A program made the position numbers and the translations under genes. A stretch of DNA of 64,000 nucleotides from Alkalispirochaeta sp. (GTDB taxonomy: Bacteria > Spirochaetota > Spirochaetia > DSM-27196 > Alkalispirochaetaceae): assembly GCA_965242725.1 (NCBI GenBank), contig CBDESZ010000016.1:32001-96000 (forward strand). Direction: 5' to 3'. The notes under the pieces were generated by a model. It was not told the DNA's origin. It did not search any database and saw only the letters and a program-made list of their open reading frames with translations. Positions 2,209 through 22,399 of the stretch are shown one piece after another (the stretch's first letter is position 1; the number at the start of each line of letters is the position of its first letter).

Positions 2209-2210
2209 CG

Positions 2211-3299: not shown

Positions 3300-3422
3300 C
3301 ACACAAGTATATGCCACCACCTGGTCCGGGTAAACCGTGGGAAGTTTAGCTCAAAGAATGATTTGGGAAACACGATAGCCAGAGGGTCGATTCCAGTGAA
3401 ACCCGGCCGCGTCCCCTCCCCA

Positions 3423-4732: not shown

Positions 4733-4738
4733 TGTCAA
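4733..4738 (-). promoter_or_regulatory. -35 box TTGACA of the IS110 circle-junction promoter
   Basis: Joining the element ends gives TTGACA-N17-CATCAT (-10 from 6081-6086), pointing at the ncRNA and transposase. Confidence 0.7.
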
Positions 4739-5823
4739 GCAGCGAAGTCGAAGTTCTTGAATCGTTCGAAGTCGCGCTTCTTTCGCCGAAACGAGCTCTC
4801 TCTTGGAAACCGACTGGCCTCACCATTCTTCAACATATAGAAGATCGTTCCGATCGTTCTTCCTACAACTGCGACACGGATCTTCTTGCGGGACTTCCCC
4901 AAGGATCGAGCGACAAATCGATCGAGTAGCGGATTGCCGTCCACTAAGTGATGAGAGGCTTCCAACAACAGGGTAAATGTGAGTCGTCGTCCTCGCTTGT
5001 TGATACCGCCAATATGGGTGCGTTCATTTGACGAATCGACTCGAGGTGCGGCCCGGAGATAACTTACGAGATGTCTCCTTGTACGAAAACGTCGGATATC
5101 GACGATGTCCGACATGATGCAGACGCTGCCGAACACGCTTATCCCATGGATCGTCATTAGTACTTGGACTTCCTGAGAATATCGGATGACGCCAAGAGCT
5201 GTGATTCGGTCTCGAGTTGCCTCAAAGTCCGCGTCGATCAATTCGTACTCCCTCAGAAGTTGACGGATCATAAACCGGTCGGAGTCGCGGAAGCTGGGGT
5301 TCGCAAAAACCTCATCGGGGCTTGTCATCAGATCTTGACGACTGATTTGAATCATTCGCTGGCGACATACTGCGAATATTCGATTGCGAATCCGGTTCCG
5401 GGAGGTCGTCAGATACTGGTAGTGCGTGACAAGTACTCGGAGTTCCTGTGTCTTTTCGTCCGGAACAAAGACTTCAGGAAAATGGTCGTCCTTATCGTCG
5501 TTTTCAAGATGGCGTTTGAGTGCGTTAGCAAGTTTCCTGGCATCAACACGATCGGTCTTTTTCACGCCGCCCCATATCAGGCGCATATCCATCGGATTCA
5601 CGACAAAGACCCGCGCTCCCGTTGCCCGAACCAATCCAGCGAAAAAGAACGCCCCGCTGCCCGCCTCAACGCAAACGGCAGCATCTGCATTCAAGTCGTC
5701 GAGGAAACGATCGATACTATCCAGCGGGTATCGTCGATTCTGCCGCTCGATGCCGTTCATCCCTTCTCGAATCAGGTGGACCGTGATTTGCGTCGAATGC
5801 TGATCAACACCAACATAGACCAT
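4735..5823 (-). CDS. IS110-family DEDD recombinase/transposase
   Basis: YVGVDQH, CVEAG, KKTDRVDA, TIHGIS and DSSNERTHIGGINKRG motifs; RBS GAGGAGG upstream. Confidence 0.93.
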   Translation of the reverse strand: MVYVGVDQHSTQITVHLIREGMNGIERQNRRYPLDSIDRFLDDLNADAAVCVEAGSGAFFFAGLVRATGARVFVVNPMDMRLIWGGVKKTDRVDARKLANALKRHLENDDKDDHFPEVFVPDEKTQELRVLVTHYQYLTTSRNRIRNRIFAVCRQRMIQISRQDLMTSPDEVFANPSFRDSDRFMIRQLLREYELIDADFEATRDRITALGVIRYSQEVQVLMTIHGISVFGSVCIMSDIVDIRRFRTRRHLVSYLRAAPRVDSSNERTHIGGINKRGRRLTFTLLLEASHHLVDGNPLLDRFVARSLGKSRKKIRVAVVGRTIGTIFYMLKNGEASRFPRESSFRRKKRDFERFKNFDFAA

Positions 5824-5847
5824 ACTGCAACCTCCTCAGAAAAATTT

Positions 5848-6060
5848 GAGAGAAGGACGGTCCTGATCGAGTGCGTCTCATGCCTCTATGCGAGCTACCG
5901 CCATCCGCTTACACGGCGGGCCCAGGAGATCGTACGAAGAAGGCTGACTAGTCCAATTAACGGGCTTGTGATTTTCCGATGAGAATCACCCCCAACGGTT
6001 ACTTCAGCCTTCGTCAATCCGTCACCTCTCAGGACCGACGGTACCTTCTCTCGTACGACC
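5848..6060 (-). ncRNA. putative IS110 bridge/seek RNA
   Basis: Nested stems 5848-5866/6029-6052, 5939-5947/6004-6012 and 5968-5976/5981-5989; internal-loop segments match both halves of the insertion target; exact ends unknown. Confidence 0.8.
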
Positions 6061-6159
6061 TCTCAAGGCCGCCGGCACTCATGATGTCCAATTTTCCCGC
6101 ACCTTACGATCAGCACCGGAGTGAATCATACTGCTGACTTTCAAAAGGAGGGCATCGGT

Positions 6160-6471
6160 ATGACAGCGAATAATCAGTCTGAAGAGCGCCGGGAAATGGT
6201 GCGCCAGTTTCATGAAAGCGGGATGACTCAAAAGGACTTTGCCGCGTTTTATGGAGTCACGCGGAGCACCTTGGGATATTGGGTGCGACGGCTTCGGGAG
6301 AACGAGCAATCGACGGAAACGACCTCGTTCGTCCCCGTCGGAGCGATTATGTCTCCCACACGTTCAACGGCACTTCGCGTCATCATCCGTTCCGGTGTAA
6401 CGGTAGAATTGGATCTTCCCGCGTCTGAAGAAACGATACGAATGGTGTTGAAGGCGGCCCAGTCGATATGA
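6160..6471 (+). CDS. tnpA: IS66 TnpA accessory HTH protein
   Basis: SGMTQKDFAAFYGVTRSTLGYWVRR and FVPV motifs. Confidence 0.85.
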   Translation: MTANNQSEERREMVRQFHESGMTQKDFAAFYGVTRSTLGYWVRRLRENEQSTETTSFVPVGAIMSPTRSTALRVIIRSGVTVELDLPASEETIRMVLKAAQSI

Positions 6472-6818
6472 TCGGTCCGGATTTCTCGCAGATAGCGATT
6501 TATGTCCGACCCGGCATCACGGACATGCGGAAAGCTATAAATGGTCTTGCGATCATCGCGACCGAGCAGATGAACAAAGACCCATTGTCCGGAGCACTGT
6601 TCCTGTTCTGCAACCGCTACCGAAGAATTATGAAGGCCCTTTATTGGGACAAGAACGGGTTCTGTCTTTGGCAGAAGAAACTCGAAAAGCACCGCTTCCC
6701 GTGGCCGCAAACTGAAGAGGCTGCTCGGAGCATCACCGCCGGAGAACTCCGGATGCTTCTCGAGGGTATCGACTTCTGGCATGTCCACGAGTCGTTACCG
6801 TATCGTTCGGTCTCCTAA
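6468..6818 (+). CDS. tnpB: IS66 TnpB accessory protein
   Basis: TDMRKAINGL...LFLFCN...KALYWDKNGFCLWQKKLE. Confidence 0.92.
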   Translation: MIGPDFSQIAIYVRPGITDMRKAINGLAIIATEQMNKDPLSGALFLFCNRYRRIMKALYWDKNGFCLWQKKLEKHRFPWPQTEEAARSITAGELRMLLEGIDFWHVHESLPYRSVS

Positions 6819-7206
6819 GGCTATACACACAAATTCCAGCATGCTAGAATTCTGGCCATGGCGTTGGCCGATACGGTGCTGGAACAGCTTGATCCTCAAG
6901 TCCGATCCTACATCGAAGATCTCGAGAAACAGTCCGCATCACTGGCACGTGAAAATGAACACTTATCCCAGGAGAAAGAAGCCCTTTCCAACGAGGTGCA
7001 GTCTCTTGTGTACACCGGCCCAAAACGGACACGTATTCCGGTGGAAAGCGGACAGTGATTCCGGCGTAATCCGGACACCGATTCCGGCGGAAAACGGACA
7101 GTTTTTCCGGAGCGCCGGAATCGATTCAGCCTGACAGAAGAGATCCTCGATCAATACGGGCACTCCCGGCAAACTGGTGGGTAACATCATTGTGAGGGAG
7201 TACGGA

Positions 7207-8754
7207 ATGCCGAGAGAGAGGATACCTGTGAAACACATGCGCAAATTGCTTGCGCTCACCTACGAGAGCAAACTGGGGCTTCGGGACGTATCGCGACTCA
7301 CCGGAGTATCGAAGACGACGATCAGTGAATACCTGGTGCGATTCAGACGCACCGGAATCAGCTTTGAGAAGAGCCTTGAGCTCACCGATGACGAACTGCT
7401 TGGCCTGTTCGAAGAGAAAAAGCAGGAAGAAAGCGAGCAGTACACGCAGGTGATGGCGCTCTTCCCGGAATACGCAAAACGGTTAAAGCGCCGGGGAATG
7501 ACCAAGCAGCTGTTGTGGGAGGAGTACCGGACGCAGCACCCCGACGGGTATCGCTACAGCCAGTTCTGTCACCACTTTGGCATGTTCCTGGAATCCGGCG
7601 AGGTCACCATGCGGCAACCTCACGAACCGGGAGACATGGCCTACATCGATTACGCCGGTGAGACCTTCCCGTACTATCGAGACGGCGAAGAACAGCAGGC
7701 AGAGGTATTCGTTGCGGTACTCGGAGCAAGCCAACTCGCGTATGTCGAAGCTGACGAGAGCCAGAAACAGGAAGCGTTTCTCCGTTCAACCGAGCGGGCG
7801 TTGCGCTATTTCGACGGAGTTCCCCGCGCTCTGGTACCGGATAATCTGAAGGCGGCCGTGCTCAAGGCAAGCAAATACGAACCGGAAATCAATCCGCTGT
7901 TCGACGATTTTGCCGAGTATTACCGAACGACGGTTATTCCCGCCAGGGCATACAAACCAAAAGACAAGGCCCTGGCGGAGAACACCGTCAAATTAACCTA
8001 CCAGCGGATTTTCGCCCCGCTGTACGGCAGGACGTTCCATTCGTTGGCTGAGCTCAACCAGGCCATCGCCGAACGCCTTGAGACCCACAATACTCGAGAA
8101 TTGACCAAGCTGCAAATCTCTCGACGGCAGTTGTTTGAGGAGATCGAACGATCGGCGCTGAAGACGCTGCCCAGCGCGCCGTATCCGATGAAATCCTTCG
8201 AGAACCACAAGGTTGCACCGGACTATCACTTTATCCTGTCGGAAGATAAGCACTACTACTCCGTTCCCTGGCAGTTGAAGGGTGTGCAGGTAAAGGTGAT
8301 CTTCGATGAGCGTATCGTCGCGGTATATCACGACAACGTACGCGTTGCCCAGCACCGGCGCAGCCGGAAAAAAGGGCAGTACACGACAAAAGCCGAGCAC
8401 ATGCCCAAGCACCACCGGTTTTTTCAATCCTGGTCTGCCGAAAAGTTCACCTCCTGGGCCAATTCCATCGGAGAAGAGACGTTCCTGGTGATTTCTCGGC
8501 TCCTGAGCGATAAACCCCATGAGCAACAGGCATACAAGTCCTGTCTTGGGGTGCTGAATATGGCACAGGAAGTCGGTTCAGATCGACTGAACTTGGCCTG
8601 TCGACGAGCCCTTAACTACTCCAGAATCAGCTATCGGGATGTCCGTGGGTATCTGGACGAGATTTTGCGCCAGGAGAAGGATGATCACGAGGATGATCGG
8701 GTACTTCTTTTCACCGACCACAAGAATCTGCGTGATTCGGCAATCTACAAGTAA
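7207..8754 (+). CDS. istA: IS21 transposase IstA
   Basis: YIDYAG, VPDNLKAAV, KPKDKALAE. Confidence 0.93.
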   Translation: MPRERIPVKHMRKLLALTYESKLGLRDVSRLTGVSKTTISEYLVRFRRTGISFEKSLELTDDELLGLFEEKKQEESEQYTQVMALFPEYAKRLKRRGMTKQLLWEEYRTQHPDGYRYSQFCHHFGMFLESGEVTMRQPHEPGDMAYIDYAGETFPYYRDGEEQQAEVFVAVLGASQLAYVEADESQKQEAFLRSTERALRYFDGVPRALVPDNLKAAVLKASKYEPEINPLFDDFAEYYRTTVIPARAYKPKDKALAENTVKLTYQRIFAPLYGRTFHSLAELNQAIAERLETHNTRELTKLQISRRQLFEEIERSALKTLPSAPYPMKSFENHKVAPDYHFILSEDKHYYSVPWQLKGVQVKVIFDERIVAVYHDNVRVAQHRRSRKKGQYTTKAEHMPKHHRFFQSWSAEKFTSWANSIGEETFLVISRLLSDKPHEQQAYKSCLGVLNMAQEVGSDRLNLACRRALNYSRISYRDVRGYLDEILRQEKDDHEDDRVLLFTDHKNLRDSAIYK

Positions 8755-8756
8755 GG

Positions 8757-9506
8757 ATGAGCACCATGAACAATAATCAGGCAACGATCAACAGAATGAC
8801 CGAGATGCGCCTGCATGGAATGGCCCAGGCGTTTCGCACGCTTCAGGAAACCGGAAAAACCATGGATCTCACCATCGACGAGACGATCACGTACCTGATC
8901 GACGCCGAATGGGATGAGAAGCACAACCGACGGCTCGATCGGCTTACCCGGGCTGCCCGGTTCCGCTACCAGGCTGCATTGGAAGATATCGACTACACCC
9001 TGGATCGGAATCTGGACAAGAACCAGATTCTTCGGCTCGCCGACTGCTCGTGGATATCCCGGGGGCAGGATCTTCTCATCACCGGTCCAACCGGTTGTGG
9101 AAAAAGCTTTCTCGGATCAGCCTTCGGGCATCAGGCGTGCCAGCACGGCCATTCCGTGGCGTACTTTTCCGCATCTCGCCTGTTCAACGAAATCGAAGCG
9201 GCCAAGGCGGATGGAACATACCTGAAACATCTGACACGAATCATGAAGAGCGCATTACTGCTCATCGACGACTTCGGCCTGGAGCCGCTCAACCATACCT
9301 CTCGAATGGCTCTCCTTGAAATCCTTGAGGACCGGCACCGACGGAAATCAACAATGATCATCTCTCAGCAACCGGTAGAGAACTGGCATGCCCTCATAGG
9401 CGACCCGACGATCGCCGACGCAATCATGGATCGGCTTGCATTTCATTCTCACCGAATTGAGATCACCGGCGACACGGTGAGGAGGAAACTCTATGCGGTA
9501 GATTGA
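8757..9506 (+). CDS. istB: IS21 ATPase IstB
   Basis: GPTGCGKS, LLIDDFG, ADAIMDRL. Confidence 0.93.
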   Translation: MSTMNNNQATINRMTEMRLHGMAQAFRTLQETGKTMDLTIDETITYLIDAEWDEKHNRRLDRLTRAARFRYQAALEDIDYTLDRNLDKNQILRLADCSWISRGQDLLITGPTGCGKSFLGSAFGHQACQHGHSVAYFSASRLFNEIEAAKADGTYLKHLTRIMKSALLLIDDFGLEPLNHTSRMALLEILEDRHRRKSTMIISQQPVENWHALIGDPTIADAIMDRLAFHSHRIEITGDTVRRKLYAVD

Positions 9507-11260
9507 CCTGAAAACGGACAGCTGTTATGAGTGATGGCGAGGATTTTGTTCCTTCAGGCAGCTGTCCGTTTTCGCCCGGAATCCCTGTCCGAAATCACCG
9601 GAGTACACACTCTCGAAGAGAAGCTCCAGCTGGCTGTTTTTCTCCGTTTCGGTCGTTCCAGTGAGCAATCCACCGTCGCTCCCGGCCAGGGCGATCTGTT
9701 TACCGAGGCCGATGACACAACCACGGCGGAGTCAGAAGAATCCGAGGACAAAGACACCGTAACGGTCGCCGCCCATACGAAGAAAAAGCCCGGCCGCAAG
9801 CCGATTGATCCGGCGCTTCCCCGCTTTGAACGGGTCATCGATATTTCCGATGGCGACAAACAGTGTGCCTGTGGTCACCAGATGGTACGGATCGGTGAAG
9901 AAGTTACCGAGCGCATTCAGGTCATTCCGGAGAAGATCTGGGTCGATCGTATCGTTCGCCCCAAATACGCATGCCACCAATGCGAAGGGTCCGGTGATGA
10001 ATCCAAACCCGCAGTGCGAATAGCGCCGGTGGAACCGACAGTGGTTCCCGGAGGTATCGCCACCGCGAGCCTGATCGCCTTTATCCTGGTTAACAAGTTT
10101 GTGGATCACTTGCCGTTCTACCGGCAGGAAAAACGATTTGAGCGGATCGGGATCACCATATCCCGAGAGAACATGAGTAACTGGACGATCCGCTCTGCCC
10201 AGGTACTCCAGCCATTGATCGATCGGTTTCGGACGCTGATTCGCGGAGGGCCGGTGGTGAATGTCGATGATACCCGGGTACAGGTCATGAAAGAACCGGG
10301 GCGGGCAGATACAACGAACAGCTTTATGTGGCTTGCCCGCGGCGGGCCGCCGGATTCACCGGTAACACTGTATCACTACAGCCCGACCCGGAGCGCCGAC
10401 TATCTCAGACGACTCCTCTCAGGGACTGCGCTCTACATGCAGGGTGACGCGTATCAGGCGCATGAGCAACTGGCAAAGGAAGAACCCGGCATTATGCGGG
10501 TTGGGTGCTTCGCCCATGCCCGGCGAAAGTTTCACGAGGCGGCGAAGGGGAGCAAGAAAGCCGGCGCTGCCCACGAGGGGATGAAATACATCGGCCAGCT
10601 CTACCGGATCGAGACGGAGTTGCGTGCATTGGGTCTCTCCGACGATGAGTTCTCTAGGAAACGACGTGAGAGGACAGAACCGATCATGGCGAAGTATCAT
10701 CAATGGTTGACCAAGAAGCAGCAGGCCGTTGTTCCTTCAACTCTTCTGGGAAAGGCAGTGACCTATACGCTCGACGAATGGCCGGCGCTTGTTCGCTACC
10801 TCGATCACCCGGCACTCACCCCGGACAATAATGCCGCCGAAAACGCAATCCGCCCCTTTGTTCTGGGCCGGAAGAACTGGCTGTTCTCCGGAAGCCCGAA
10901 CGGCGCTGCCGCCTCATGCGCGATCTATTCATTGATCGAGACTGCGAAGCAGAACAGCCTGAACCCGTTCGCGTATCTGTACTATGTCCTTGATCGGGCT
11001 CCACGGATCATCGCCGATTCCGAATGGGATGAGCTGCTTCCCGGTAAGCTCACTGAGGAAACGATATCAGCATCCTACCCCGCACCGGGGCGTTTAATTT
11101 GACGGTTACGACTAAAAACGAGACATGCCAGTCGAGAGTCACCAAGAAAAGTGCAAAAGAATCTGGACACTACCCGAACGCTTCGAAGGTATTCTGTATA
11201 GATTTTGCGACAGCCTCTATATGCTTCGTAAATGTGATGACCGTTCACGAAGAGGATAGT

Positions 11261-12196
11261 TTAAGGAGTCCCACTATAGGAAACCCTGGTACCAATAATC
11301 GCGCCCGCCGCCTTACGTTCATCAATGCCGTGTTCGTCTCCGTGTATCCGCAGTACCGTACAATCACGGAATCTTTGAGCGGCCAGGAGCATCCCGAGAC
11401 GATGTGGTTTTGGCCCTAATGGAACGATCGAAACGTCCGACTCGTGGATAAACTCTGAAATGAGTTCAGCTATCGCTTGAAACACGATGCGAACACTCCG
11501 AATGGGCAGAGGAAACACCTGATCGGCGTCTTCTAATATTGCTTTGTTCGCGTCACGCGCCCTTTGTGAGTATTCGTCATGTGCACCGGGATCGGCATAG
11601 ATAGCGATTAGTACTTCTGGTTCCAATTCTTCGACCACTGCTGTAGCAGACCATCCATCGAATCCTAAACCAACTATTGCGGTCGACATAGCAAGTGTAT
11701 ATGGCATACCCTCAAAACCAGGTATAGCGGCAACACTCTGTAGTTCCAGCCGCGGGTGCTCAGGCATATATTCTGCCAAAGAATAGAAGAAATCAATCGT
11801 AACATCGCGATCAAAGGATGTATTGGAGCACCAACTTAGTAATGCAGCGTACCACGATGTACTCATCGAGCTGTAGTCGACAAGCAGATGAAGATTGCTG
11901 GTACTGGAGTTTCGGACTCTGTCTAGGATTGAGTATATCGTTTGTTGTGATTTTCGTTGCTCGGAATGAAACTCAGAGGAAAAATGTGTTGAAAAAAAGG
12001 TATCACTCATTTTGCGCTGATGATTATCCGAATAATCCGTGTATCCGAGTACATGAGTATTACAATCAAGCTTCCCCTTTAGTGCAGTGGCTAAGTGTGT
12101 TGCTCTCGATTCATAACCTGACGCAAATATAGCCGCATCATACGATGTCGTTTGTGAAGTCTCCAAATCAATGTCTTCAACTCTATATAACTTCAT
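11261..12196 (-). CDS. hypothetical protein with two Rossmann/CARF-like repeats
   Basis: AIFASGYESR...VDYSSM and AIVGLGFDG...IVPLGPKP repeats; ATGA overlap with the ATPase gene. The CDS is solid; the fold is inferred. Confidence 0.6.
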   Translation of the reverse strand: MKLYRVEDIDLETSQTTSYDAAIFASGYESRATHLATALKGKLDCNTHVLGYTDYSDNHQRKMSDTFFSTHFSSEFHSEQRKSQQTIYSILDRVRNSSTSNLHLLVDYSSMSTSWYAALLSWCSNTSFDRDVTIDFFYSLAEYMPEHPRLELQSVAAIPGFEGMPYTLAMSTAIVGLGFDGWSATAVVEELEPEVLIAIYADPGAHDEYSQRARDANKAILEDADQVFPLPIRSVRIVFQAIAELISEFIHESDVSIVPLGPKPHRLGMLLAAQRFRDCTVLRIHGDEHGIDERKAAGAIIGTRVSYSGTP

Positions 12197-14016
12197 TGTT
12201 CCTCATTTATTGGTAGAGATAATTGAGTAGATTCGACGCCATCGCCGTTCTCAATCTGCTCCTGACCCTGGCTCAAGATCTTTGATAGTTTGACTGGCCT
12301 TCCATTTCTCGGTAGTAGACGGAAGTGCGGGCATAATGCAAACGCGAGTTGAAATGTGCCAGTTTTTTCGGGTAGTTGGTCTGGCGAAGACCGCCTTCTT
12401 CGTGGATAGAGTAAGCCGAGTGAGACGGCCCGACTGATAACGGGCCAGTATTCTTCCGGCACGTCTTCGTCGAATTGGATCGCTGAATACACATCGGTAG
12501 TCAAAGGCGAAGTATGAAACCTATTCCGAAAATACATGCCAATTCGGTCGATAAGTTCGAAAAGTGCGGTCCCAACAGCCTCGTCGCTCCTCTTTCTTTC
12601 TAGTTCATCTGCTGAAAAAGAGATTAGTTTCTCGGATTGGCGCGTCTTGGAAACTACGGGTTCTTCTTTATTCACCGAAGACCTGGCCGCTGACTTAAAC
12701 TCGAGCAGGTACTTGTTATATATTCGTATCAGCTTTCTTGTGTTAAAATCCGCACATCTGACGATCAACTCAGCACCGGAAAATACGTCAATTTGTGCGT
12801 TACCGCGCTCGTTAGCTACCGCTTCGCGCAATAGCAGTGCACCGCGAATCTTTCGATCGATTGAATCTCCAAACTTTGCGGGCGAACTTGTGACAAGCTC
12901 ACGAGCTCGGTCTCTAGTTTCGGTGCTACAATACTTTTCAATGAGTTTATCGATTCTATCGTCCAGTCCTTTCGAGTACTTGTGGGGCTGAAGAAGAACT
13001 GAGTGTCCAAAGAGTTTGTGTAGAGTGATCTCTGACGTGAATGCATGAGATCTTGCCACCCGCTTATTGAGGATCGTAGCAGCAAATTGGTACCCCGGCG
13101 CGTCGGTTCGGCCACTTCTTAATACGGGGTCTTGGTCAATATACACGTATTCGAAATCGTGTCCTATATCTAGCGGGGCAGCTATATTCGTAGCAAGTGT
13201 GCTATGGTAATAAGGCATCGTAACAATCTTGAGAAACAGATTTGCAGACTCTGCCCGCATCAGAGTATTTAGGACACGAAGGTGTGATTCTTCTAGATAC
13301 TCTGCTTCGTCGATACAAAGTGCCCAAGCTGCACTTTGCGACAATTCTAGGATCTCCGTCGCGATCGGAATGCCCGTCCTAATCATGCTTAACAGCGGCA
13401 CATCGAGTTCGTAACCTACTGACATGTCGGACCGGTCATTCTCATTCGATCTTTTCGCCTGTAATAGGTTCTTGTGGTGTGCGATCTCCAGGAAATGCTT
13501 CTGTATACTTCCGAGCTGAGCGATCGAAATCTTTCCACCAGTCCACAAACTCGATAGCTCTTGAGACAGTAATCTCTCCCTACGAGCCCGACGACCGGGA
13601 TCTTCGAAATACCGATTAAGGCAACTTCGAAGTGATTCAAGGAAACTAATTACGGTGAGTAGGTTAAAACGCCACTGAAACTGACTTTCAGCTTCCTCTT
13701 TTGAACTCCAAGGCTTGCTACGAAGTGCTCCTACCCACTCCAAACTCGTCGGTGTGTACATGCCTATGAATGCACGATCTTCTATCGCACGCTTGGCAGG
13801 CCTTTCATCTAAGAGCGATAAATGGGAATGTGATAACATCCGTGCCAGAGAAGTCTTTCCGGCTCCGCGTGAGCCGAGGATCACATGATGCTTCGGTGTC
13901 ATCAGACGCCAAAACGCTTTAAGGGGAACGAAAGTCGCGGCGATGTCTTCAGCGTTGAGATGCTTGGCATTTTCAACTTCAAAAAGGTTTCTCGACACCT
14001 GAAATTGCTTACTCAA
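12193..14016 (-). CDS. ORC/CDC6-like (STAND-related) AAA+ ATPase with probable C-terminal wHTH
   Basis: Walker A GSRGAGKT; Walker B LCIDEAE; C-terminal RAVSLGLL...LCPHFRL. Confidence 0.75.
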   Translation of the reverse strand: MSKQFQVSRNLFEVENAKHLNAEDIAATFVPLKAFWRLMTPKHHVILGSRGAGKTSLARMLSHSHLSLLDERPAKRAIEDRAFIGMYTPTSLEWVGALRSKPWSSKEEAESQFQWRFNLLTVISFLESLRSCLNRYFEDPGRRARRERLLSQELSSLWTGGKISIAQLGSIQKHFLEIAHHKNLLQAKRSNENDRSDMSVGYELDVPLLSMIRTGIPIATEILELSQSAAWALCIDEAEYLEESHLRVLNTLMRAESANLFLKIVTMPYYHSTLATNIAAPLDIGHDFEYVYIDQDPVLRSGRTDAPGYQFAATILNKRVARSHAFTSEITLHKLFGHSVLLQPHKYSKGLDDRIDKLIEKYCSTETRDRARELVTSSPAKFGDSIDRKIRGALLLREAVANERGNAQIDVFSGAELIVRCADFNTRKLIRIYNKYLLEFKSAARSSVNKEEPVVSKTRQSEKLISFSADELERKRSDEAVGTALFELIDRIGMYFRNRFHTSPLTTDVYSAIQFDEDVPEEYWPVISRAVSLGLLYPRRRRSSPDQLPEKTGTFQLAFALCPHFRLLPRNGRPVKLSKILSQGQEQIENGDGVESTQLSLPINEEQ

Positions 14017-14017
14017 A

Positions 14018-15238
14018 TTACGACTCCTTCAAGAGGATCAGGTTGTCCAGATTTTCACCATGCGGGGTTAGCGATAGGTCCGGGGGCAGGATCTCCAATG
14101 CCGATCTGACGCGTTCGAAGGGTACGTATTCCAATGATAACATTGCTGCGAGATCTCGCCACTTGATGTGATCTTTAGTCGAGAACACTTCCCTTATCTT
14201 TGGTTCCACTCTAGATAACAATTCTCCTTCACGCAAGTATGAGCCAAAGGGATATCGATGGGCCACTCCATTGTGGGCGTCGCTAGGTTTCCATCCCTTG
14301 GCAGCTGTATGGGTCCAACTTTTGACTTCACCGTACGCCGAAAGATCTTTGGGATCTCTACCGTTCACTTCAATTATATGGAACTGATTATTGACCACTC
14401 CGCTCCACCTCGAGTCTAAGATTGCAGAAAAGCTCCCTGCTCCTATCACTACAAGTGGAAACGCACCATTTATACTGACGGAATGTACATTCGGTGCGTG
14501 CTTGTGTCCATGTATCAACAGATCAAAATGATTTCTCGAAAGAGATTGAATTAAGTTCATACTATTGGTCATAACGCTAAAATCAGGTTCATCAGGTAAC
14601 GGGTCACTATAAGCCAACACATGATGATGAACGACAAAAATCCTTAGTTGGTCGTGGTTTGGACTTTTCTGAGTTATTAATTTATCAATTGTTTCCACAG
14701 TTCGCTGTGGGATCAGGCCGTGGTGATTCGATTTCTCGGGTCGATCATGCCAGGATGAATTGAATGTCATAACGTATGCTTCCGGGAAGCGCCATTCGCA
14801 GACAAATGGAGCAATGTCGAAGGAGCCTCGGGCACTTTCATGTCTTTCGGTGAGGTACGACGCAGTGCGTAAAAGGGGATCGTAGCGTTGCTTGTGTCGC
14901 AATCCTGTTGGATCATCGCTGTCGATCCGTAGAACACTCCAATCCACGTCATGATTACCTGGAACGAAAACTACCTTATCATTAGATATGTTAAGTACGT
15001 TGCATATCCGCTTTATCGCTGTGACGGCCAATTCCATTTCCCTCGGATCTGCTCTGTGAGATAGGTCTCCGGGTACTATGAGAATATCTGCGGAAAGACT
15101 TTCAGTTCTAACAAAGTTTTCGAAACTATCGAGATAGTTGTCAACGAAATGTTTTTCGTCTCTTGAATCAGGACATAAATCATTTGCCTTGGACCCGTCC
15201 CCAGAATGAAGATCACTTACTACTGCAATGCGTGTCAT
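14018..15238 (-). CDS. calcineurin-like metallophosphoesterase
   Basis: SDLH, GDL, PGNHD, HH and HGHKH motifs. Confidence 0.9.
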   Translation of the reverse strand: MTRIAVVSDLHSGDGSKANDLCPDSRDEKHFVDNYLDSFENFVRTESLSADILIVPGDLSHRADPREMELAVTAIKRICNVLNISNDKVVFVPGNHDVDWSVLRIDSDDPTGLRHKQRYDPLLRTASYLTERHESARGSFDIAPFVCEWRFPEAYVMTFNSSWHDRPEKSNHHGLIPQRTVETIDKLITQKSPNHDQLRIFVVHHHVLAYSDPLPDEPDFSVMTNSMNLIQSLSRNHFDLLIHGHKHAPNVHSVSINGAFPLVVIGAGSFSAILDSRWSGVVNNQFHIIEVNGRDPKDLSAYGEVKSWTHTAAKGWKPSDAHNGVAHRYPFGSYLREGELLSRVEPKIREVFSTKDHIKWRDLAAMLSLEYVPFERVRSALEILPPDLSLTPHGENLDNLILLKES

Positions 15239-16044
15239 GATGACAATCCTAGATTTAAGTTTGAGGCGACGATTTCTGAGGCCGGGTTCCGACGTTCTGC
15301 CTTGCTGGCCATCCGACGTGGAACAGAAATAGTGCTAAAGTTCCACTTGTTTTTTAAGTTTTGTATTTGTTCACAATCCGCATAACTGAGTACAAAAGCC
15401 GCTCCACGTTTGTCAATAACCTCAAGAACACGCATGAGTCTCTCTAAGTCGTCAAAATCGAACAGTTTTGGCCCATATTGGGTGAAGGATTTTACCCCAC
15501 GGCGAAAATACGGTGGATCTAGATATACAAAGTCCCGTTCTCGAACATTGCTAAGAAGAAAATCCTCAAAGTCTATGCAGGAAAACGTTACTCTATTCAT
15601 TGTTGCACTTATTTCTCTCAGTCGGTCTTTTGATGGTAGTTGACCGGTTTTCCTTGGCGCATAGGGCACATTAAACTCTCCCTTGTGATTGGTTCGATAC
15701 AGACCATTGAAACAATACCGATTCAAAAAGATGAATCTCGCTGCCCTTGCTACATTATCGTCGAGATTTGTCTGGCTTCTGACGTGATAGTAGAATGCTT
15801 TCGTGTTGGGCATTTTTTGCAAATTGTCGGCCACCTCGTCTGGTCGATCAACAATCGTTTGGTATGTTTTAACTAGTTCGCCATTTAAATCGTTGAGTTG
15901 CGCCGTATGTGGAAGAAGGCGAAAGTAAAGAGCAGCAGATCCCGCAAAAGCTTCGAGGTATCTTACAAAGTGTGGAGTCCAGAATTCCTGAAGCAATGGT
16001 AGTAGAGCTTTCTTACTACCAGCCCACCGAAAAATAGGTTCCAT
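15235..16044 (-). CDS. Dam-family DNA adenine methyltransferase
   Basis: FRWAGSK, EAFAGS, FNGLYRTN, YLDPPY. Confidence 0.9.
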   Translation of the reverse strand: MEPIFRWAGSKKALLPLLQEFWTPHFVRYLEAFAGSAALYFRLLPHTAQLNDLNGELVKTYQTIVDRPDEVADNLQKMPNTKAFYYHVRSQTNLDDNVARAARFIFLNRYCFNGLYRTNHKGEFNVPYAPRKTGQLPSKDRLREISATMNRVTFSCIDFEDFLLSNVRERDFVYLDPPYFRRGVKSFTQYGPKLFDFDDLERLMRVLEVIDKRGAAFVLSYADCEQIQNLKNKWNFSTISVPRRMASKAERRNPASEIVASNLNLGLSS

Positions 16045-16455
16045 TTTATAACTATAAACTAGAATTTATGTGTCGCACAGCGCTTCATTTCGAAGACCCA
16101 CCAACCATTTCTCTAAAGTCTCGCGGTCCGCCTCATCGTGGTATGAGAAACTCTAGAAAATCGGCAATCCTTCCATACATAAAGATAAAGTACGATATTT
16201 TGCGCACTTTCATGGGAGTTGAAAGAAACGGCCCTCGACTGGATAGTGTGAGTTACCCCTAACCAACTATCACAGGAGGACTGTCGCGGGCCAGGCATAA
16301 TCCCCATAAATTTGGCGTTGGGGCCATGGATATTCCCCACCCGCCGAGCCCCACGGGGCCATTTATATTCCCCAGTTTTTCCGCAATAGGGCCATCCATA
16401 TTCCCCACCTGATGGGGTGATACCGGTACCCTGATGCGCAGGAGGACTGTGGGTC

Positions 16456-18069
16456 ATGGGATACCGTATGCTGAAGATTGATCACCTCTATGAGGTATAC
16501 CGTCGCGCCATCGCCGGAGAAAGCAAAAGCGCGATCGCCATACACACTGGATGGGATCGCAAGACGATCGGGAAATACATCAGGATTCTCTCGGAGCGGT
16601 CACTACTGCCGGCAGAATTGGCAGTCAGCCGGGATGCGTTTCAGAGACGGGCAGGAGATCTTGCCGATCAGCCGCGTGAGAAGTCTACACCGGCGAGGGA
16701 TCAGCTTATTGATCATCTTGATGAACTGCGCGAACTGATCGCTCCGTCCAAAGATGAGAACGGGAAAATCGAAAAACCGATGCGCCCGAAATCGGCATAT
16801 CGGGTGATCCTCCGGCGCCATAACCTCTCCATCGGATACTCGTCGTTCAAACGGTTCGCCCGGGAACACGGTTTAATGGAGGTTGCAAAGAAGACGTATA
16901 TCCGTATTGAGTTACCGCCGGGTCGGGAGGTCCAACTTGATTACGGCACCATGGGGCTTCTGGCCGTGGATGGGCGGAATCGCACGATCTACGCCTTCTG
17001 TGCAATTCTTGCTCACTCTCGCAAGCCCTTTGTCCAATTGGTCACCAGCCAGAGCGAACAGAGCTTTGCGGAGAGCGTGGTTGAGATATTCCATTTCTAC
17101 GGCGGTGTCACCGAGTTTCTCACGGTGGATAACCTGAAGGCTGCGGTGATTAAACCGGACCTCTGGGACCCGCAGCTGAACCGGTCTCTGGCAGAAGTGG
17201 CTGAGTATTACGGAACCTTTGTGAATACCGCTCGGGTAGTGACGGCAACAGATAAAGGGAAGGTCGAGCGGATTATTCCGGTTGTCAGGGAAGCGTATCG
17301 TGTCATCAGAGCAGTCCATCCCACCGCGACCCTCACGGAAATGAACCGCTACATGCTTCAATGGTGTGTCGACGAATACGGTACGGAACCGCATGGAACG
17401 ACTCGTATTCCACCTGAGGAAGCGTTTGTGGCCGAGCAAAATGCACTCAAACCGCTCCCGGAATCGCGATTCGAGCCGGCTTCCTGGGCCTATCCGAAAG
17501 TTCACAAGGGTGATGGCTTTCTGAGCTACCACAAGATGCGCTTTGCCGTTCCGGCGAAATACCGGGGAAAACAGGTGGCGGTACGCGCTACCAGGCGCCT
17601 GATCGAGATTTTTCATGGCCCGGAGCGTATCCGCATCTATCCATATGAGCCGGGAACGCGGGTGTATTACTTCACCAGCGACTTTCCGGCGGAAAAACAG
17701 GCGATGATGGACGGGTCCTATCCACAACACCTTCTCCAGCGCGCGAATTCGTACGGGAGTGCAGCCCGGGATCTGATTTCCGCAATCCTGGCGCCTCACG
17801 CGTATCTCAACGCCCGTCAGGCTCAGGGACTACTCCGTGTTATGGATGAATTCCGCGAACATCCGGACTTTGATACTCACTGCCTCACCGCACTGCGCCG
17901 CCGGATCGTCGTTCCCAAAACGTTCAAAGCATTGTTTGAACTAGACAGGACCGCCGGCAGGCGAGGAACACTCTCTACCACGCCCGCTGTCGATATGACG
18001 ATGGCACGGGATATCACCTATTTCTTTGACCTTCAGGAGGAACTCGATGCAGCAGGCTCACGAAATTGA
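16456..18069 (+). CDS. istA: IS21 transposase IstA
   Basis: QLDYG, VDNLKAAV, DKGKVER. Confidence 0.92.
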   Translation: MGYRMLKIDHLYEVYRRAIAGESKSAIAIHTGWDRKTIGKYIRILSERSLLPAELAVSRDAFQRRAGDLADQPREKSTPARDQLIDHLDELRELIAPSKDENGKIEKPMRPKSAYRVILRRHNLSIGYSSFKRFAREHGLMEVAKKTYIRIELPPGREVQLDYGTMGLLAVDGRNRTIYAFCAILAHSRKPFVQLVTSQSEQSFAESVVEIFHFYGGVTEFLTVDNLKAAVIKPDLWDPQLNRSLAEVAEYYGTFVNTARVVTATDKGKVERIIPVVREAYRVIRAVHPTATLTEMNRYMLQWCVDEYGTEPHGTTRIPPEEAFVAEQNALKPLPESRFEPASWAYPKVHKGDGFLSYHKMRFAVPAKYRGKQVAVRATRRLIEIFHGPERIRIYPYEPGTRVYYFTSDFPAEKQAMMDGSYPQHLLQRANSYGSAARDLISAILAPHAYLNARQAQGLLRVMDEFREHPDFDTHCLTALRRRIVVPKTFKALFELDRTAGRRGTLSTTPAVDMTMARDITYFFDLQEELDAAGSRN

Positions 18070-18817
18070 ACACGAACTTAAACGACTACGCATGCCCGGA
18101 GCGTACCAGCAGCTTGATCACCGGTTGATTGAGGCTCAAGAGCAGAGCCTCGGTTATCTCGAGTTCCTCGCTCTGGTTCTCCACGACGAACTGGCAAACC
18201 GGGAGGCGAACAACTTCACCAAACGGTTGAGTCAGGCATCCCTGGGAACCCGGGAAACCTTCGATCGCTTCGATTTCCGTTTCAATGATGAAGTCTTTCC
18301 GGCGGCAACGATCCGCGACCTGGCATCATGCCGGTTTATCCAGCAGCACACCAACCTCGTTATTGCCGGTCCTCCCGGAATCGGGAAGACGTTCATTGTG
18401 AAAGCGATCGGCCACGAGGCATGCCGCCAGGGATTCACCGTGCTGTTCCGCAGCACTCAGCGGCTGCTTTCCAGCCTCCTTACCGCTTCACCTGATCGGC
18501 AACGACGGATGCTCAAGAAAGCGTGTTCCGTGGATGTCCTCATCCTCGATGATTTCGCCTTCCGCTCTCTTGATCAGCATGAGGCGGAGATGCTGTACAT
18601 CATCGCCGAAGAACGGAACGGTATCTCCTCGACCATTCTCACTTCCAACAGACCGCCGCAGGACTGGTACAGCATCTTTCCCGATCCCATCGTTGGTGGT
18701 GCTATTCTCGACCGCATGGTCTCGGGAGCGATTAAACTCATTACTTCGAAAGGGCGCTCGTACCGGAAGGAAGTACACGGCTCCCACACCTCAAAATCAG
18801 CTCCGCCAAAATCGTGA
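18047..18817 (+). CDS. istB: IS21 ATPase IstB
   Basis: GPPGIGKT, LILDDF, TSNRP, AILDRM. Confidence 0.92.
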   Translation: MQQAHEIEHELKRLRMPGAYQQLDHRLIEAQEQSLGYLEFLALVLHDELANREANNFTKRLSQASLGTRETFDRFDFRFNDEVFPAATIRDLASCRFIQQHTNLVIAGPPGIGKTFIVKAIGHEACRQGFTVLFRSTQRLLSSLLTASPDRQRRMLKKACSVDVLILDDFAFRSLDQHEAEMLYIIAEERNGISSTILTSNRPPQDWYSIFPDPIVGGAILDRMVSGAIKLITSKGRSYRKEVHGSHTSKSAPPKS

Positions 18818-18906
18818 CACCCCCCCGGATACCCTTATTTTCACTGGGGAATATGGATGGCCCTGGGGTGGGGAATTACGCGGCCCTTGACAAGGACCGC
18901 CATGAA

Positions 18907-19475
18907 TGGAAATTACGCCCCAAACCTGCCGGCTGTTACGATTTAAACCTGCCACCCATTCCGGCTAAACCTGCCGGGTATTCCGACGTAAACCTGCCAA
19001 ATTTCGGCGGTCATCGTAACGGGTGGCAGGTTTGTATCGGAATGGAGATTTGCATCCTCGCAAGAAACGTTGGAACTCGTCATCGTAGCCGATGAGGAGG
19101 AACCGAATGCCGAAAGCGAGGATCAGCATGAGTAAAATACGAGAAATCATTCGGTTAAACGAATCTTCCGGATTATCCATCCGGAAGATCAGCCGCGCAC
19201 TGGCCGTATCCCGGCCGGTGATGTCGGAGTATCTCAAACAGGCAGAAAATGCCGGACTGAAATGGGCGGATGTGGAGACGATGAGCGACGATGAGTTGCT
19301 CGAGCGTTTGCGGGATAGCGAAACACGGCGATATGATCCACGATACGAAGTTCTGATGAATCTGATGCCGGGAATGGTCAACGAGCTGGGGCGACGCCGC
19401 GGCCGTATGGGTGAGATACCGGTCGTGTGGAAACCACACGACCGGAGCTTTGCTCCTGAGCTTACGGGACGGTGA
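18907..19475 (+). pseudogene. istA: truncated IS21 element 3 (left-end repeats plus istA N-terminus from 19107)
   Basis: Four AAACCTGCC repeats at 18922, 18945, 18967 and 18990; MSKIREIIRL...SIRKISRAL HTH, then loss of similarity. Confidence 0.8.
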
Positions 19476-20163
19476 TCGTATTGGCGTACGTGCCGTTCCG
19501 GAGCTCACATCCTTCCGTGCGACGGGCCCTCAGTTGGACCGTGTAGGGGCCCGCGGGCAGGTCCGGGACTTTTCCGTCTACGATTTTTGTACCGTGGCGG
19601 CTGTAGACCGTTGCGCGATACCCGGTGCCGGCGGCATCCACAAAGAAGACGCCTTCGTCCTCCGCTTCCGTATGGAAGGCAAGGCGGGCGCCGACGATGT
19701 GAAAGAGTTGCCCCGGAGAGAGCTCATCCGCCGCCGCAGGTTGATCCACGTTTGTAAGGGTTGAAATGACCGGCAGTTTTGGATTGAGCTGCTCCTCCAC
19801 GGAGATCGCCAGACGGTTCTGGATCTCCTGGTAGAAGCCGCGGTTTGGACGATACCGGAGCTTCATGCCCTGCGGGCCGATGTCAGGCGTGACGGGGCTC
19901 CCGTTTCGCTCGCCCCGTACGTGGGCGGCAAAGATGCCGAGGGGCGTCTGCACGGCGTTGCCCTTGGCGGTGTAGAAGACGAGTGCCTTCTTGAGTCGAT
20001 CTACGGCGAGACGCATGTCGTCCTCTTCCAACGCCGTATCCATCGCCATAAACCGCAGAATTTCTTCAAACTCCACGGTTACCCGATTGACCACACGCGG
20101 CCGTAGCGGCAGTCCGTTATGCAGCGTGTTTTCCACCAACGTGACTTGCAAAGGCATAGCCAC
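19462..20163 (-). CDS. HU-like DNA-binding domain plus DUF4469 (Ig-like) protein
   Basis: N-terminal HU-like segment; C-terminal GARLAF...DEGVFF...LPAGPY. Confidence 0.7.
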   Translation of the reverse strand: MAMPLQVTLVENTLHNGLPLRPRVVNRVTVEFEEILRFMAMDTALEEDDMRLAVDRLKKALVFYTAKGNAVQTPLGIFAAHVRGERNGSPVTPDIGPQGMKLRYRPNRGFYQEIQNRLAISVEEQLNPKLPVISTLTNVDQPAAADELSPGQLFHIVGARLAFHTEAEDEGVFFVDAAGTGYRATVYSRHGTKIVDGKVPDLPAGPYTVQLRARRTEGCELRNGTYANTITVP

Positions 20164-20518
20164 CTCCTGGGAACGTATTTACTCCGCCCGAGGCGGGAGT
20201 AGTCTCACGTATCCGGATCGAGTAACACAGGCGAGTGCAATGATCTTTCCTAGTATCGGTTCAGGAGGTTATAAATAAGAGTTATTTTTCCGTATTCTGT
20301 TGAAAATATTTCTAACTCGAATTCTGTATTTCGAACGTTCCAGACACACGATATGTTCGTTATATACACGCGATTCGTACATTCCATACGGCGCGTTTGT
20401 ACGTCACGTCCAAACAAAGAGTTCGTGACATTCAAACTGTGTGTTCGGGAGTTCCGGATATCGGGGAAGAAACCTTCTTTCATTGAAGGTCGTATCCTGC
20501 GTCGCTATATTCCATGTA

Positions 20519-22399
20519 ATGGCACGCTTCGGTCGTCACCGTATTACGATACTCGTCCTTGTCGCGCTCCTGTCCGGGATTGCCGGGTTCCGGTACTTCG
20601 GTACCCGGGAGGACGTTGCATTTCCCGATCTCCAGGGTCCCGACGGGGCAGCGGAGGTAGCGGTTTCACCTCCCCCGACGGATCCGGCTGCCTATCGGCT
20701 GCACGGCAGCGCTTCTCATGCCGCGGCGATACTGTTAACCGATACATCGTCGTCGTGGCTGGGCCTCGCACACGGTCTGAAGACGATGGGGGTACCTTTT
20801 ACGATTGTCACCGATATCGACGAGGCGCTGGAACACGACGTCGTGATCGTCTATCCCGCGCTGACCGGAAGCAGCCTGCCGCCGCACGCCCTGCAGGCGC
20901 TGGCCGCACACGTCAGATCCGGTGGAACCCTCGTTGGTTTTTCCGTGATCGGAGGGGGGATGCCGCCGGTCTTCGGATTCGACAGAGCAAACGAGGATGC
21001 GCGGCGCCGTGAAATGGTATTCACCGACTCGCCCTGGGTGCGGCGTTTTGCCGCCGACGCATTGGAGCGGCGCGTTCCCCTCGCGCCGCCCTCCGGTGAC
21101 GGGAGTCCGGTGCTGATCTTTGCCGGAGAGAAGCTGGAACCTGTCGCGCGGTACCGCGACGGCGGGGCGGCGATCGTTATGAATCGTTTTGACGCCGACG
21201 GCCGGACCGGTCGGGCCTACGCGGTCGGATTCGACATCGGTCACTACGTCCTGCGCGCCACAAACGGTCGCTTCGCGGAGATGGTTTCGAGTTACACAAA
21301 TACATACCAGCCCCAGGTCGACACGCTCCTCAGATTTCTTAAAACCGTCTATCGTGAGGGAGAACCGGACGCGGTGACGCTGGGTTTCACGCCCCATGGC
21401 AGGGATGTGACGATCGTGATGACCCACGATATCGACTTTACCCGTTCAATGGACAACGTGCGCACCTACGCCGATTATGAGTCGGGTGCAGACATTCCCG
21501 CGACCTATTTTATTCAGACGAAATACATGACCGACTACAACGATCGGGCGTTTTTCGGTCCGTCCCGGCAGGAGGATCTCCGCTATCTGGAGGCGCGCGG
21601 TATGGAGATCGCCAGTCACGGCGTCTCTCATTCAAACGAATTTCGTTCGATGCCCCTCGGTACCGGCCTTGAGCGGTACCCGGACTACGAGCCCTTCGTA
21701 GAATCCTTTACCGAGGTACGGGACGGCTCCGTACTGGGAGAGCTTCGGGTCAGCAAATTTCTCCTTGAGTCATTGTCTGCGTCGAACGTGTCGTCGTTCC
21801 GGCCGGGGCACCTGTCGCACCCCGACTTCCTCCCCGAGGCGCTCGATGCGGTCGGGTATCGTAACAGCTCCAGCATGACCGCCAATGAAGCGATGACGCA
21901 CTTCCCCTATCAGTTGACCCACAGTCGCGGGTACGCCACGGAAGTCGACGTCTTCGAGTTCCCCATAACGATAGAAGACGAGTACGGAAGCCTGACCGAC
22001 AGAATTGACGCGTCGATCGCCCTGGCCGATCGGATCGCTTCCCGCGGCGGCCTCGTCAACGTGCTGATCCACACCGACGTGGCGGGTGAGAAGCTTGCAT
22101 TTGAAAAGCGCTTCGTGGAGGCCTTTCGCGATCGGGCGTGGTTCTCGACCCTCGGAGACTTCGGCGAGTGGTGGCGCGCCCGGGATGAAGTGACCCTGGA
22201 GGTCGTTCGTGAGTCCGACGATCGCCGTCTCCTGATCCTCGAGGCTCCCTTTGAACTGGAAGGGCTGACCCTTCAGGTGCCGGAGCGCTGGCAGCTCGTC
22301 CATTCACCCGTTGCGGCGCGACAGGAAGGAACCGCCGTCGTCGTGGAGGCACTTTCCGGCGTCACACGCCTCCCGTTTCACGTGCGATCTGTCCCCTGA
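20519..22399 (+). CDS. polysaccharide deacetylase family exported protein
   Basis: MTHDID, ATYF, EIASHGVSH and FRPG NodB-type motifs; N-terminal TM. Confidence 0.75.
   Translation: MARFGRHRITILVLVALLSGIAGFRYFGTREDVAFPDLQGPDGAAEVAVSPPPTDPAAYRLHGSASHAAAILLTDTSSSWLGLAHGLKTMGVPFTIVTDIDEALEHDVVIVYPALTGSSLPPHALQALAAHVRSGGTLVGFSVIGGGMPPVFGFDRANEDARRREMVFTDSPWVRRFAADALERRVPLAPPSGDGSPVLIFAGEKLEPVARYRDGGAAIVMNRFDADGRTGRAYAVGFDIGHYVLRATNGRFAEMVSSYTNTYQPQVDTLLRFLKTVYREGEPDAVTLGFTPHGRDVTIVMTHDIDFTRSMDNVRTYADYESGADIPATYFIQTKYMTDYNDRAFFGPSRQEDLRYLEARGMEIASHGVSHSNEFRSMPLGTGLERYPDYEPFVESFTEVRDGSVLGELRVSKFLLESLSASNVSSFRPGHLSHPDFLPEALDAVGYRNSSSMTANEAMTHFPYQLTHSRGYATEVDVFEFPITIEDEYGSLTDRIDASIALADRIASRGGLVNVLIHTDVAGEKLAFEKRFVEAFRDRAWFSTLGDFGEWWRARDEVTLEVVRESDDRRLLILEAPFELEGLTLQVPERWQLVHSPVAARQEGTAVVVEALSGVTRLPFHVRSVP

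Follow-up and report, generated by a model that had tools for sequence, protein, structure and literature searches.

According to the available text of the reports, the Metis (PUA-Cal-HAD) defence system depends on host Dam and is activated by N6-methyl-dAMP (m6dAMP) upon phage-driven breakdown of the chromosome, whereupon its calcineurin-like domain destroys NAD+ or deoxynucleoside triphosphates (dNTPs) (10.1101/2025.11.05.686725, PMC12871103). The names Metis type I, DS-9 and PUA-Cal-HAD (MisA/MisB) refer in these sources to the same system (10.1101/2025.11.05.686725, PMC12871103, 10.1101/2025.01.08.631726). A putative type III Metis combines a MisA homologue with its own methylase, MisD, which is predicted in the available preprint text to free the system from host Dam (10.1101/2025.11.05.686725). 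CARF domains are binders of oligonucleotides, and sensing of broken nucleic acid by such a domain has been described for RtcR, where, in the available text, CARF binds broken tRNA and drives oligomerisation (PMC7790460). This study concerns a four-gene cassette at positions 11261 to 16044 of a 64,000-nucleotide stretch of the Alkalispirochaeta sp. assembly GCA_965242725.1 (contig CBDESZ010000016.1, positions 32,001 to 96,000; the whole stretch is called the window below). The cassette encodes an adenine methylase, a calcineurin-like phosphoesterase, an ORC/CDC6-like ATPase and a tandem-CARF protein, and is read here, with about even confidence, as a Metis-like abortive system that would sense a GATC-methylated breakdown product.

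An earlier, sequence-only reading of the window had proposed four co-directional, tightly coupled genes with these four domains. Four minus-strand open reading frames without internal stops indeed occupy the region, with a 1-bp gap at the middle junction and ATGA overlaps at the two outer ones, and each of the proposed domains was matched by profiles. The first gene (15235..16044) encodes a 269-aa Dam/DpnM-family N6-adenine DNA methyltransferase with the DPPY motif at residues 176-179, which matches PF02086 (9.7e-47) and TIGR00571 (216.8 bits against a cut-off of 114.85) and has DpnM (2e-44) and E. coli Dam (7e-23) as its nearest solved structures. Residue R117 is invariant in 76 of 76 Dam-type cassette methylases and P127 is found in 75 of them; R117 aligns with R124 of E. 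coli Dam, which we take to be a residue that reads the GATC site. The cassette methylase is likely GATC-specific.

The second gene (14018..15238) encodes a 406-aa metallophosphoesterase (PF00149, 1e-13), the predicted effector. Its metal-binding motifs (D9/H11, G57-D58, G94-N95-H96-D97, H204-206 and H243-G-H245-x-H247) are present in 98-99 of 99 sequences. The best NCBIfam match is DS9_1, the DS-9 effector model, with 95.5 bits against a cut-off of 420. The match covers positions 195-474 of the 486 in the profile; the catalytic domain stands at the very start of the protein, and the N-terminal 194 profile positions, corresponding to the PUA-like sensor part, are unmatched. All 31 aligned homologues match the DS-9/MisA model NF053862 below its cut-off (best 2.4e-32), ten of them match SbcD and one matches Mre11. 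The C-terminal wHTH-Calcineurin_assc domain PF24408 is found in 13 of these 31 homologues, and the window copy gave no match to it at E up to 0.1. With all 31 homologues resembling an effector model, the role of effector that had been proposed for the phosphoesterase is probably correct.

The third gene (12193..14016, with a TTG start) encodes a 607-aa AAA+ ATPase, predicted to be a switch or scaffold, that matches PF24389 end to end (model positions 1-571; 1.8e-90; 304.8 bits, above the cut-off). Both its Walker A motif (GSRGAGKT) and Walker B motif (DE at 236-237) are intact, and R50, D236, R254 and K263 are invariant in 104 of 104 sequences. The AlphaFold2 model (predicted local distance difference test score, pLDDT, 86) gave weak Foldseek matches (E 8e-5 and up) to ORC, Cdc6 and CED-4.

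The fourth gene (11261..12196) encodes a stand-alone 311-aa protein of the CARF6 group, which has no effector domain and is the predicted ligand sensor. It was matched by ten PADLOC CARF6 models, the best at 5.4e-53 over residues 5-304, and its AlphaFold2 model (pLDDT 94.8) consists of two Rossmann-type repeats. The top structural match is Can1 (Z 14.1, root-mean-square deviation 3.2, 219 residues aligned), followed by Cam1, Can2, Csm6, Card1 and then SAVED, and many CARF domains align with the second half at Z 9-13; Foldseek alone was ambiguous for this protein, and a search of PDB sequences with the CARF profile returned nothing significant. Residues E29, R31, D107, Y138, N217, G261 and K263 are present in 97-99 of 99 sequences. 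The repeats carry the conserved motifs GYExR and DYSSM, and GLG and PxGPKP, which presumably correspond to the ligand motifs of known CARF domains. Complex prediction with ATPase residues 8-586 and CARF residues 1-308 scored 0.00 in both runs and is uninformative either way.

A profile search yielded 1,434 clusters at E up to 1e-10. Neighbourhoods were classified for 133 loci, namely 48 genome loci from the CARF alignment, 79 metagenome loci from the ATPase alignment, five further genomes and the window; 12 of these loci had no ATPase hit, 60 were truncated at the end of a contig or locus and 61 were fully flanked. All four genes, whose recurrence elsewhere the sequence-only reading had left to a check of neighbourhood conservation, co-occur in 47 of the 61 fully flanked loci, a count that includes the window and a few duplicate sequences. 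The remaining fully flanked loci comprise 12 without a Dam-type methylase, one without the phosphoesterase and one without both methylase and CARF. The order methylase-phosphoesterase-ATPase-CARF is kept in 70 of the 73 four-gene loci, the methylase coming last in the other three. Named hosts belong to Acidobacteriota, Bacteroidota, Verrucomicrobiota, Nitrospirota, Pseudomonadota, Actinomycetota and others, and the cassette was also found on plasmids (five records) and on three viral contigs. It is rare, with 2 to 10 carriers per 300-400 genomes sampled, and frequently has restriction-modification, retron and other defence genes as neighbours. The four genes are a real, conserved and mobile unit. 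No CARF6 match was found in 50,697 phage records, and a DNA-level search of E. coli genomes with the Enterobacter ATPase gave no match.

The methylase is the variable member of the cassette. Among classifiable Enterobacterales cassettes it is absent from 14 of 15, and dam was present in all 12 of such hosts checked. The 12 fully flanked loci that lack a Dam-type gene include seven genomes of this order, which holds Enterobacter, all seven with a full-length dam elsewhere, in what we take, from the translations, to be the housekeeping damX-dam-rpe context. The other five are three metagenome contigs of the same ATPase clade, locus L003 with a different D12 methylase, and locus L120 with a truncated phosphoesterase. 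In a follow-up on Vibrionaceae, made after the loss pattern had been seen, 301 genomes were searched and ten matched, of which three were already known and one was fragmented; the six new intact loci all lack the methylase or any remnant of it, and a Dam orthologue was found in all five hosts checked, scoring 427-439 bits versus 106 for the window enzyme. A Pseudoalteromonas plasmid copy is also without methylase. The methylase is kept, on the other hand, in five of five loci of Pseudomonadales (the order of Motiliproteus, 401 genomes) and in three of three of Burkholderiales (the order of Aromatoleum, 401 genomes), and those seven genomes encode no other full-length D12 methylase.

On the ATPase trees the losses are spread over three separate clades, two of which have a well-supported methylase-bearing sister, the third being nested, with weaker support, among methylase-bearing rows; the trees were built with FastTree on a subset of rows and rooted at the midpoint. 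Cassette methylases do not form one clade and have been exchanged on several occasions, as would suit the writer of a mark better than a subunit fitted to its partners. Because the methylase is lost where host dam is present and kept elsewhere, the remaining trio likely needs GATC-methylated host DNA (m6A at GATC), whichever enzyme writes it, and not the methylase protein. In one natural clone represented by two loci (L060, 305-2907, and L061, 104-2707), the methylase is split by an insertion sequence (IS) next to an intact phosphoesterase and ATPase, which leans towards silence of the trio rather than toxicity when the mark is missing, if the host has no other GATC methylase.

Several variants of the unit were seen beside these. 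Two viral contigs carry the methylase-less trio (L177, 2199-8713; L178, 1914-5854), the former immediately behind a replication gene A of the P2 type, a place where defence hotspots are typically found. In L108 (5091-9727) the methylase stands directly before the ATPase, no phosphoesterase is present, and a putative Abi gene (PF16872) overlaps the CARF stop codon, a possible effector swap. On a Sinorhizobium plasmid, a convergent three-gene unit abuts the cassette (L187, 7777-9867, minus strand) and encodes dCTP-deaminase-like, MazG-like and TIM-barrel/flavin oxidoreductase-like proteins, possibly another nucleotide-targeting system. Five Bacteroidota genomes (L032, L038, L043, L044 and L047, about 8001-8950) have a lone tandem-CARF gene that precedes genes for 2-oxoacid dehydrogenase and has neither ATPase nor phosphoesterase nor methylase in its neighbourhood; the CARF protein can thus persist without the cassette, possibly as a domesticated regulator. 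The contigs of L022, from a Motiliproteus metagenome-assembled genome (MAG), and of L023, from a Vibrio MAG, are 99.8% identical over 6.5 kb, which would reflect misbinning or a very recent transfer, and the Motiliproteus MAG has another, distant cassette with all four genes.

Among 401 alphaproteobacterial genomes the cassette was found in two, one with a Dam-type methylase and one with a methylase of an alternative family, and both have what we take to be a CcrM-like gene; the Sinorhizobium and Methylobacterium plasmid copies keep a Dam-family gene. The alternative D12 methylase, 410-442 aa long, fills the methylase slot in two distant ATPase clades (L003, 3722-4954; L191, 8237-9565; 38% identical to each other). 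Its closest plasmid relative stands beside a nuclease of the BglII/BstYI family and another relative beside LlaJI; BglII and BstYI sites presumably share a GATC core. A CATG-type specificity of this methylase, with an m6A-T ligand, was considered and is unsupported, its relatives adjoining the BglII/BstYI-family gene and LlaJI.

In the predicted pathway, the cassette methylase would mark host GATC sites, and an infecting phage that degrades the chromosome would release a GATC-methylated breakdown product, to be bound by the tandem-CARF protein. The ATPase would relay the CARF signal to the phosphoesterase, which, once activated, would destroy NAD+ or dNTPs and so abort the infection. No SMODS cyclase was found in any of the five carrier genomes tested, and the operon contains no Cas10 or CD-NTase. 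A Cas10-palm model gave weak hits in three of the five genomes, marginally over the cut-off in two, and also matched the E. coli control. Given the missing SMODS cyclase and the weakness of the Cas10-palm hits, a messenger synthesised by an enzyme is probably not what the CARF protein binds. As the ligand, a short fragment with its GATC context preserved is favoured, tentatively, over free m6dAMP, which is held to be doubtful. Should the tandem CARF read short Gm6ATC-containing pieces of the host's degraded chromosome, context included, it would be the first sensor of the CARF type to recognise a modified fragment of DNA, a claim that is put forward as a possibility short of probable.

A number of observations weigh against this reading. 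The Cas10 test consisted of one weak model in five genomes. The cassette has neither a PUA domain nor a HAD/MisB cleaner that would remove basal ligand. The losses amount to three events on FastTree trees; the Vibrio MAG locus L023, the sole exception in Enterobacterales, keeps its methylase, and nine methylase-less metagenome contigs (L067, L068, L086, L116, L117, L120, L125, L129 and L131) have no assignable host. The window copy departs from consensus at CARF T113 (R or K in 96 of 99 sequences) and ATPase T426 (P in 99 of 104) and so may be weakened. Furthermore, all four alphaproteobacterial loci inspected keep a methylase, although CcrM should supply free m6dAMP. This retention, seen in four loci, speaks against the sufficiency of free m6dAMP whatever its source; it would fit the fragment version, equally a rival in which the duplex mark itself is read, or recent transfer, and site density could also explain it.

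That rival, possible if on the unlikely side, is the one that survives best. Here GATC that is unmethylated or hemimethylated would be recognised by the ATPase complex, which would then activate the phosphoesterase, the CARF protein being a secondary regulator; the targets would be incoming or fast-replicating phage DNA, or host DNA that has lost its methylation, in a logic near that of BREX. The residue aligned with R124 of E. coli Dam, kept in all 76 Dam-type methylases, speaks for it, as do the loss of the methylase only in dam hosts and its retention in CcrM-like ones, the BglII/BstYI-family neighbour of the closest plasmid relative of the alternative methylase, and an ATPase fold that resembles the DNA-binding ORC/Cdc6 and BrxC. 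Yet GATC methylation would be a poor self mark in Enterobacterales, where host Dam also methylates phage DNA, and the split methylase of L060 and L061 has an intact phosphoesterase and ATPase next to it. The rival would offer no explanation for the strong conservation of the CARF motifs, and the nearest family of the effector acts on small nucleotides. The sequence-only reading had proposed that methylation marks self; this is refined in that the methylase acts through the GATC mark on host DNA, since host Dam appears to replace it, and a danger signal raised on chromosome breakdown is better supported than self-protection, which becomes the main alternative.

An improbable second rival exchanges the roles, so that the phosphoesterase would remove the methylated signal, as MisB does in Metis, and the CARF-activated ATPase would be the toxic effector. 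It would account for the missing HAD cleaner, which Metis needs, and DS-8, a weaker match of the phosphoesterase, has been proposed to degrade a cyclic nucleotide; Calcineurin-CE domains, however, are reported invariably in effector position, and the putative Abi gene behind the CARF gene of L108, where the phosphoesterase is absent, fits an exchangeable effector in this single case. Similarly improbable is a role outside defence, as a selfish or addiction module or a sensor of DNA-damage products, which the rare, mobile and plasmid-borne occurrence of the cassette would suit, but defence genes, among them those of restriction-modification systems and retrons, are often its neighbours, its parts are members of families associated with defence, and an addiction module would not be expected to leave the antidote to a stable gene of the host.

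With regard to its genomic setting, the cassette was described from sequence as AT-richer than its host, bracketed by ISs, near a restriction-modification locus and devoid of a restriction nuclease, and all of this held. Its GC content is 46.0% against 57.7% for the genome, with a third-position GC content of 0.39-0.47. On the 3' side lie the remains of an IS66 (6121..11109, plus strand; Pfam) split by an IS21 (about 7072-9591, with inverted repeats 7072-7101/9562-9591), ending about 150 bp from the cassette, and on the 5' side a second, different IS21 (16288..18868, plus strand; Pfam and inverted repeats), about 245 bp upstream of the methylase start. These flanking elements, which are outside the system, form together with an IS110 an IS pile-up at 4735-19475, where a short open reading frame (19092-19475) resembles the start of another IS21 transposase. 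The two flanking IS21s differ from each other, each is present as three identical copies in the genome, and on contig C5 both are found about 2 kb apart. They were thus inserted independently, and a composite transposon is ruled out, the two being different elements; the site looks like an insertion hotspot. Past the IS cluster are an HU-like plus Ig (DUF4469) protein gene (19462-20163, minus strand) and a polysaccharide-deacetylase-domain protein gene (20441-22399, plus strand).

The restriction-modification locus is a pair of a D12 methylase (369 aa) and a DpnII-like nuclease (281 aa) at 1363-3320 on the minus strand, about 8 kb away. None of the four cassette proteins matched a restriction-nuclease family in searches of the Pfam, PADLOC and NCBIfam libraries. 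In a 643-aa PADLOC model, the C-terminal half is matched by the 369-aa D12 methylase and the N-terminal half, which is Dam-like, by the cassette methylase; since both match halves of one model, the two enzymes could divide the methylation of GATC between them in this genome. Contig C30 of the same genome encodes another D12 methylase, about 554 aa long. Each cassette gene is present in one copy in the genome, and no full-length match to the PF24389 ATPase was found in 40 relatives, 16 of them of the same genus, the 13 hits being short and weak. A promoter and terminator scan gave results at chance level, and no GATC occurs within 245 bp upstream of the methylase. GATC is not avoided in the genome (observed/expected 0.94); CTAG (0.20), GGCC (0.61) and CGCG (0.70) are under-represented.

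The cassette is not peculiar to its source genome, as it recurs across many bacterial phyla and is mobile. What this analysis adds is the counted pattern of methylase loss with Dam-negative controls, the Vibrionaceae follow-up and the retention of the methylase in CcrM-like hosts. If the favoured reading is true, methylated DNA debris would join cyclic oligoadenylates and tRNA fragments among the ligands of CARF domains, and the CARF6 group and the PF24389 ATPases would gain a function. If its fragment version holds, the cassette would be a third, independently built way of turning the methylome into an alarm, and it would be explained why Dam, but not CcrM, replaces the cassette methylase. 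If the duplex mark is read instead, the cassette would detect a lack of methylation at GATC, a possible reason for many phages to have a dam of their own.

The sequence-only reading did not recognise a named system. Nor does any system in PADLOC or NCBIfam match the four genes as a set; the cassette is less new than was thought, dedicated models existing for three of its parts (PF24389, PF24408, matched in 13 of 31 homologues, and CARF6). PF24389 and PF24408 reportedly derive from the predicted Calcineurin-CE conflict systems of Nicastro et al. 2023, and the CARF6 models are said to stem from the CARF6 group of Makarova et al. 2020. Since three of the four cassette proteins or their homologues match these Calcineurin-CE and CARF6 families, the neighbourhood has probably already been listed computationally. 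Literature searches whose coverage did not extend to the supplements of the Metis reports, Nicastro 2023 and Makarova 2020 turned up no paper describing or testing the operon, and the operon is not described in the available text of PMC12839542, PMC4012209, PMC11090510 and PMC11754643.

The more distant systems share single traits with the cassette. Unlike type II restriction-modification systems, the operon has no match to a cognate restriction endonuclease. Can1, Can2, Card1 and the SAVED receptors of cyclic oligoadenylates also have two CARF-like folds in one chain, whereas the cassette CARF protein has no fused effector and its operon no cyclase. BREX likewise combines a methylase (PglX), an ATPase of the ORC/Cdc6 clade (BrxC) and a phosphoesterase-type enzyme (PglZ) without a restriction nuclease, according to the available text (PMC12839542), but the methylase and phosphoesterase of the cassette are of other families, BrxA, BrxB and BrxL are missing and a CARF protein is added; a PADLOC search at E up to 0.1 gave no match to a BREX model. 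RtcR, as described in the available text, resembles the cassette in joining CARF to an AAA+ ATPase and in having broken nucleic acid, not a synthesised messenger, as the ligand; it differs in being a single polypeptide that activates transcription in response to a tRNA fragment (PMC7790460), while the cassette consists of separate genes, with an ATPase of a different clade and an enzyme as output.

The Metis systems are closest. The putative type III has a comparable operon of adenine methylase and calcineurin-like phosphoesterase, the cassette phosphoesterase lacking the PUA part; CARF and ATPase are mentioned 0 times in the available preprint text, whose Fig. S9 and Table S3 may include such loci. 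With type I the cassette shares a related calcineurin-like effector domain (the NF053862 model matched below cut-off by 31 of 31 homologues); dependence on host Dam, shown for Metis, is suggested for the cassette by gene loss. In place of the PUA sensor and the HAD protein of type I, the cassette has a separate tandem-CARF protein, an ORC/CDC6-like ATPase and, usually, a methylase of its own.

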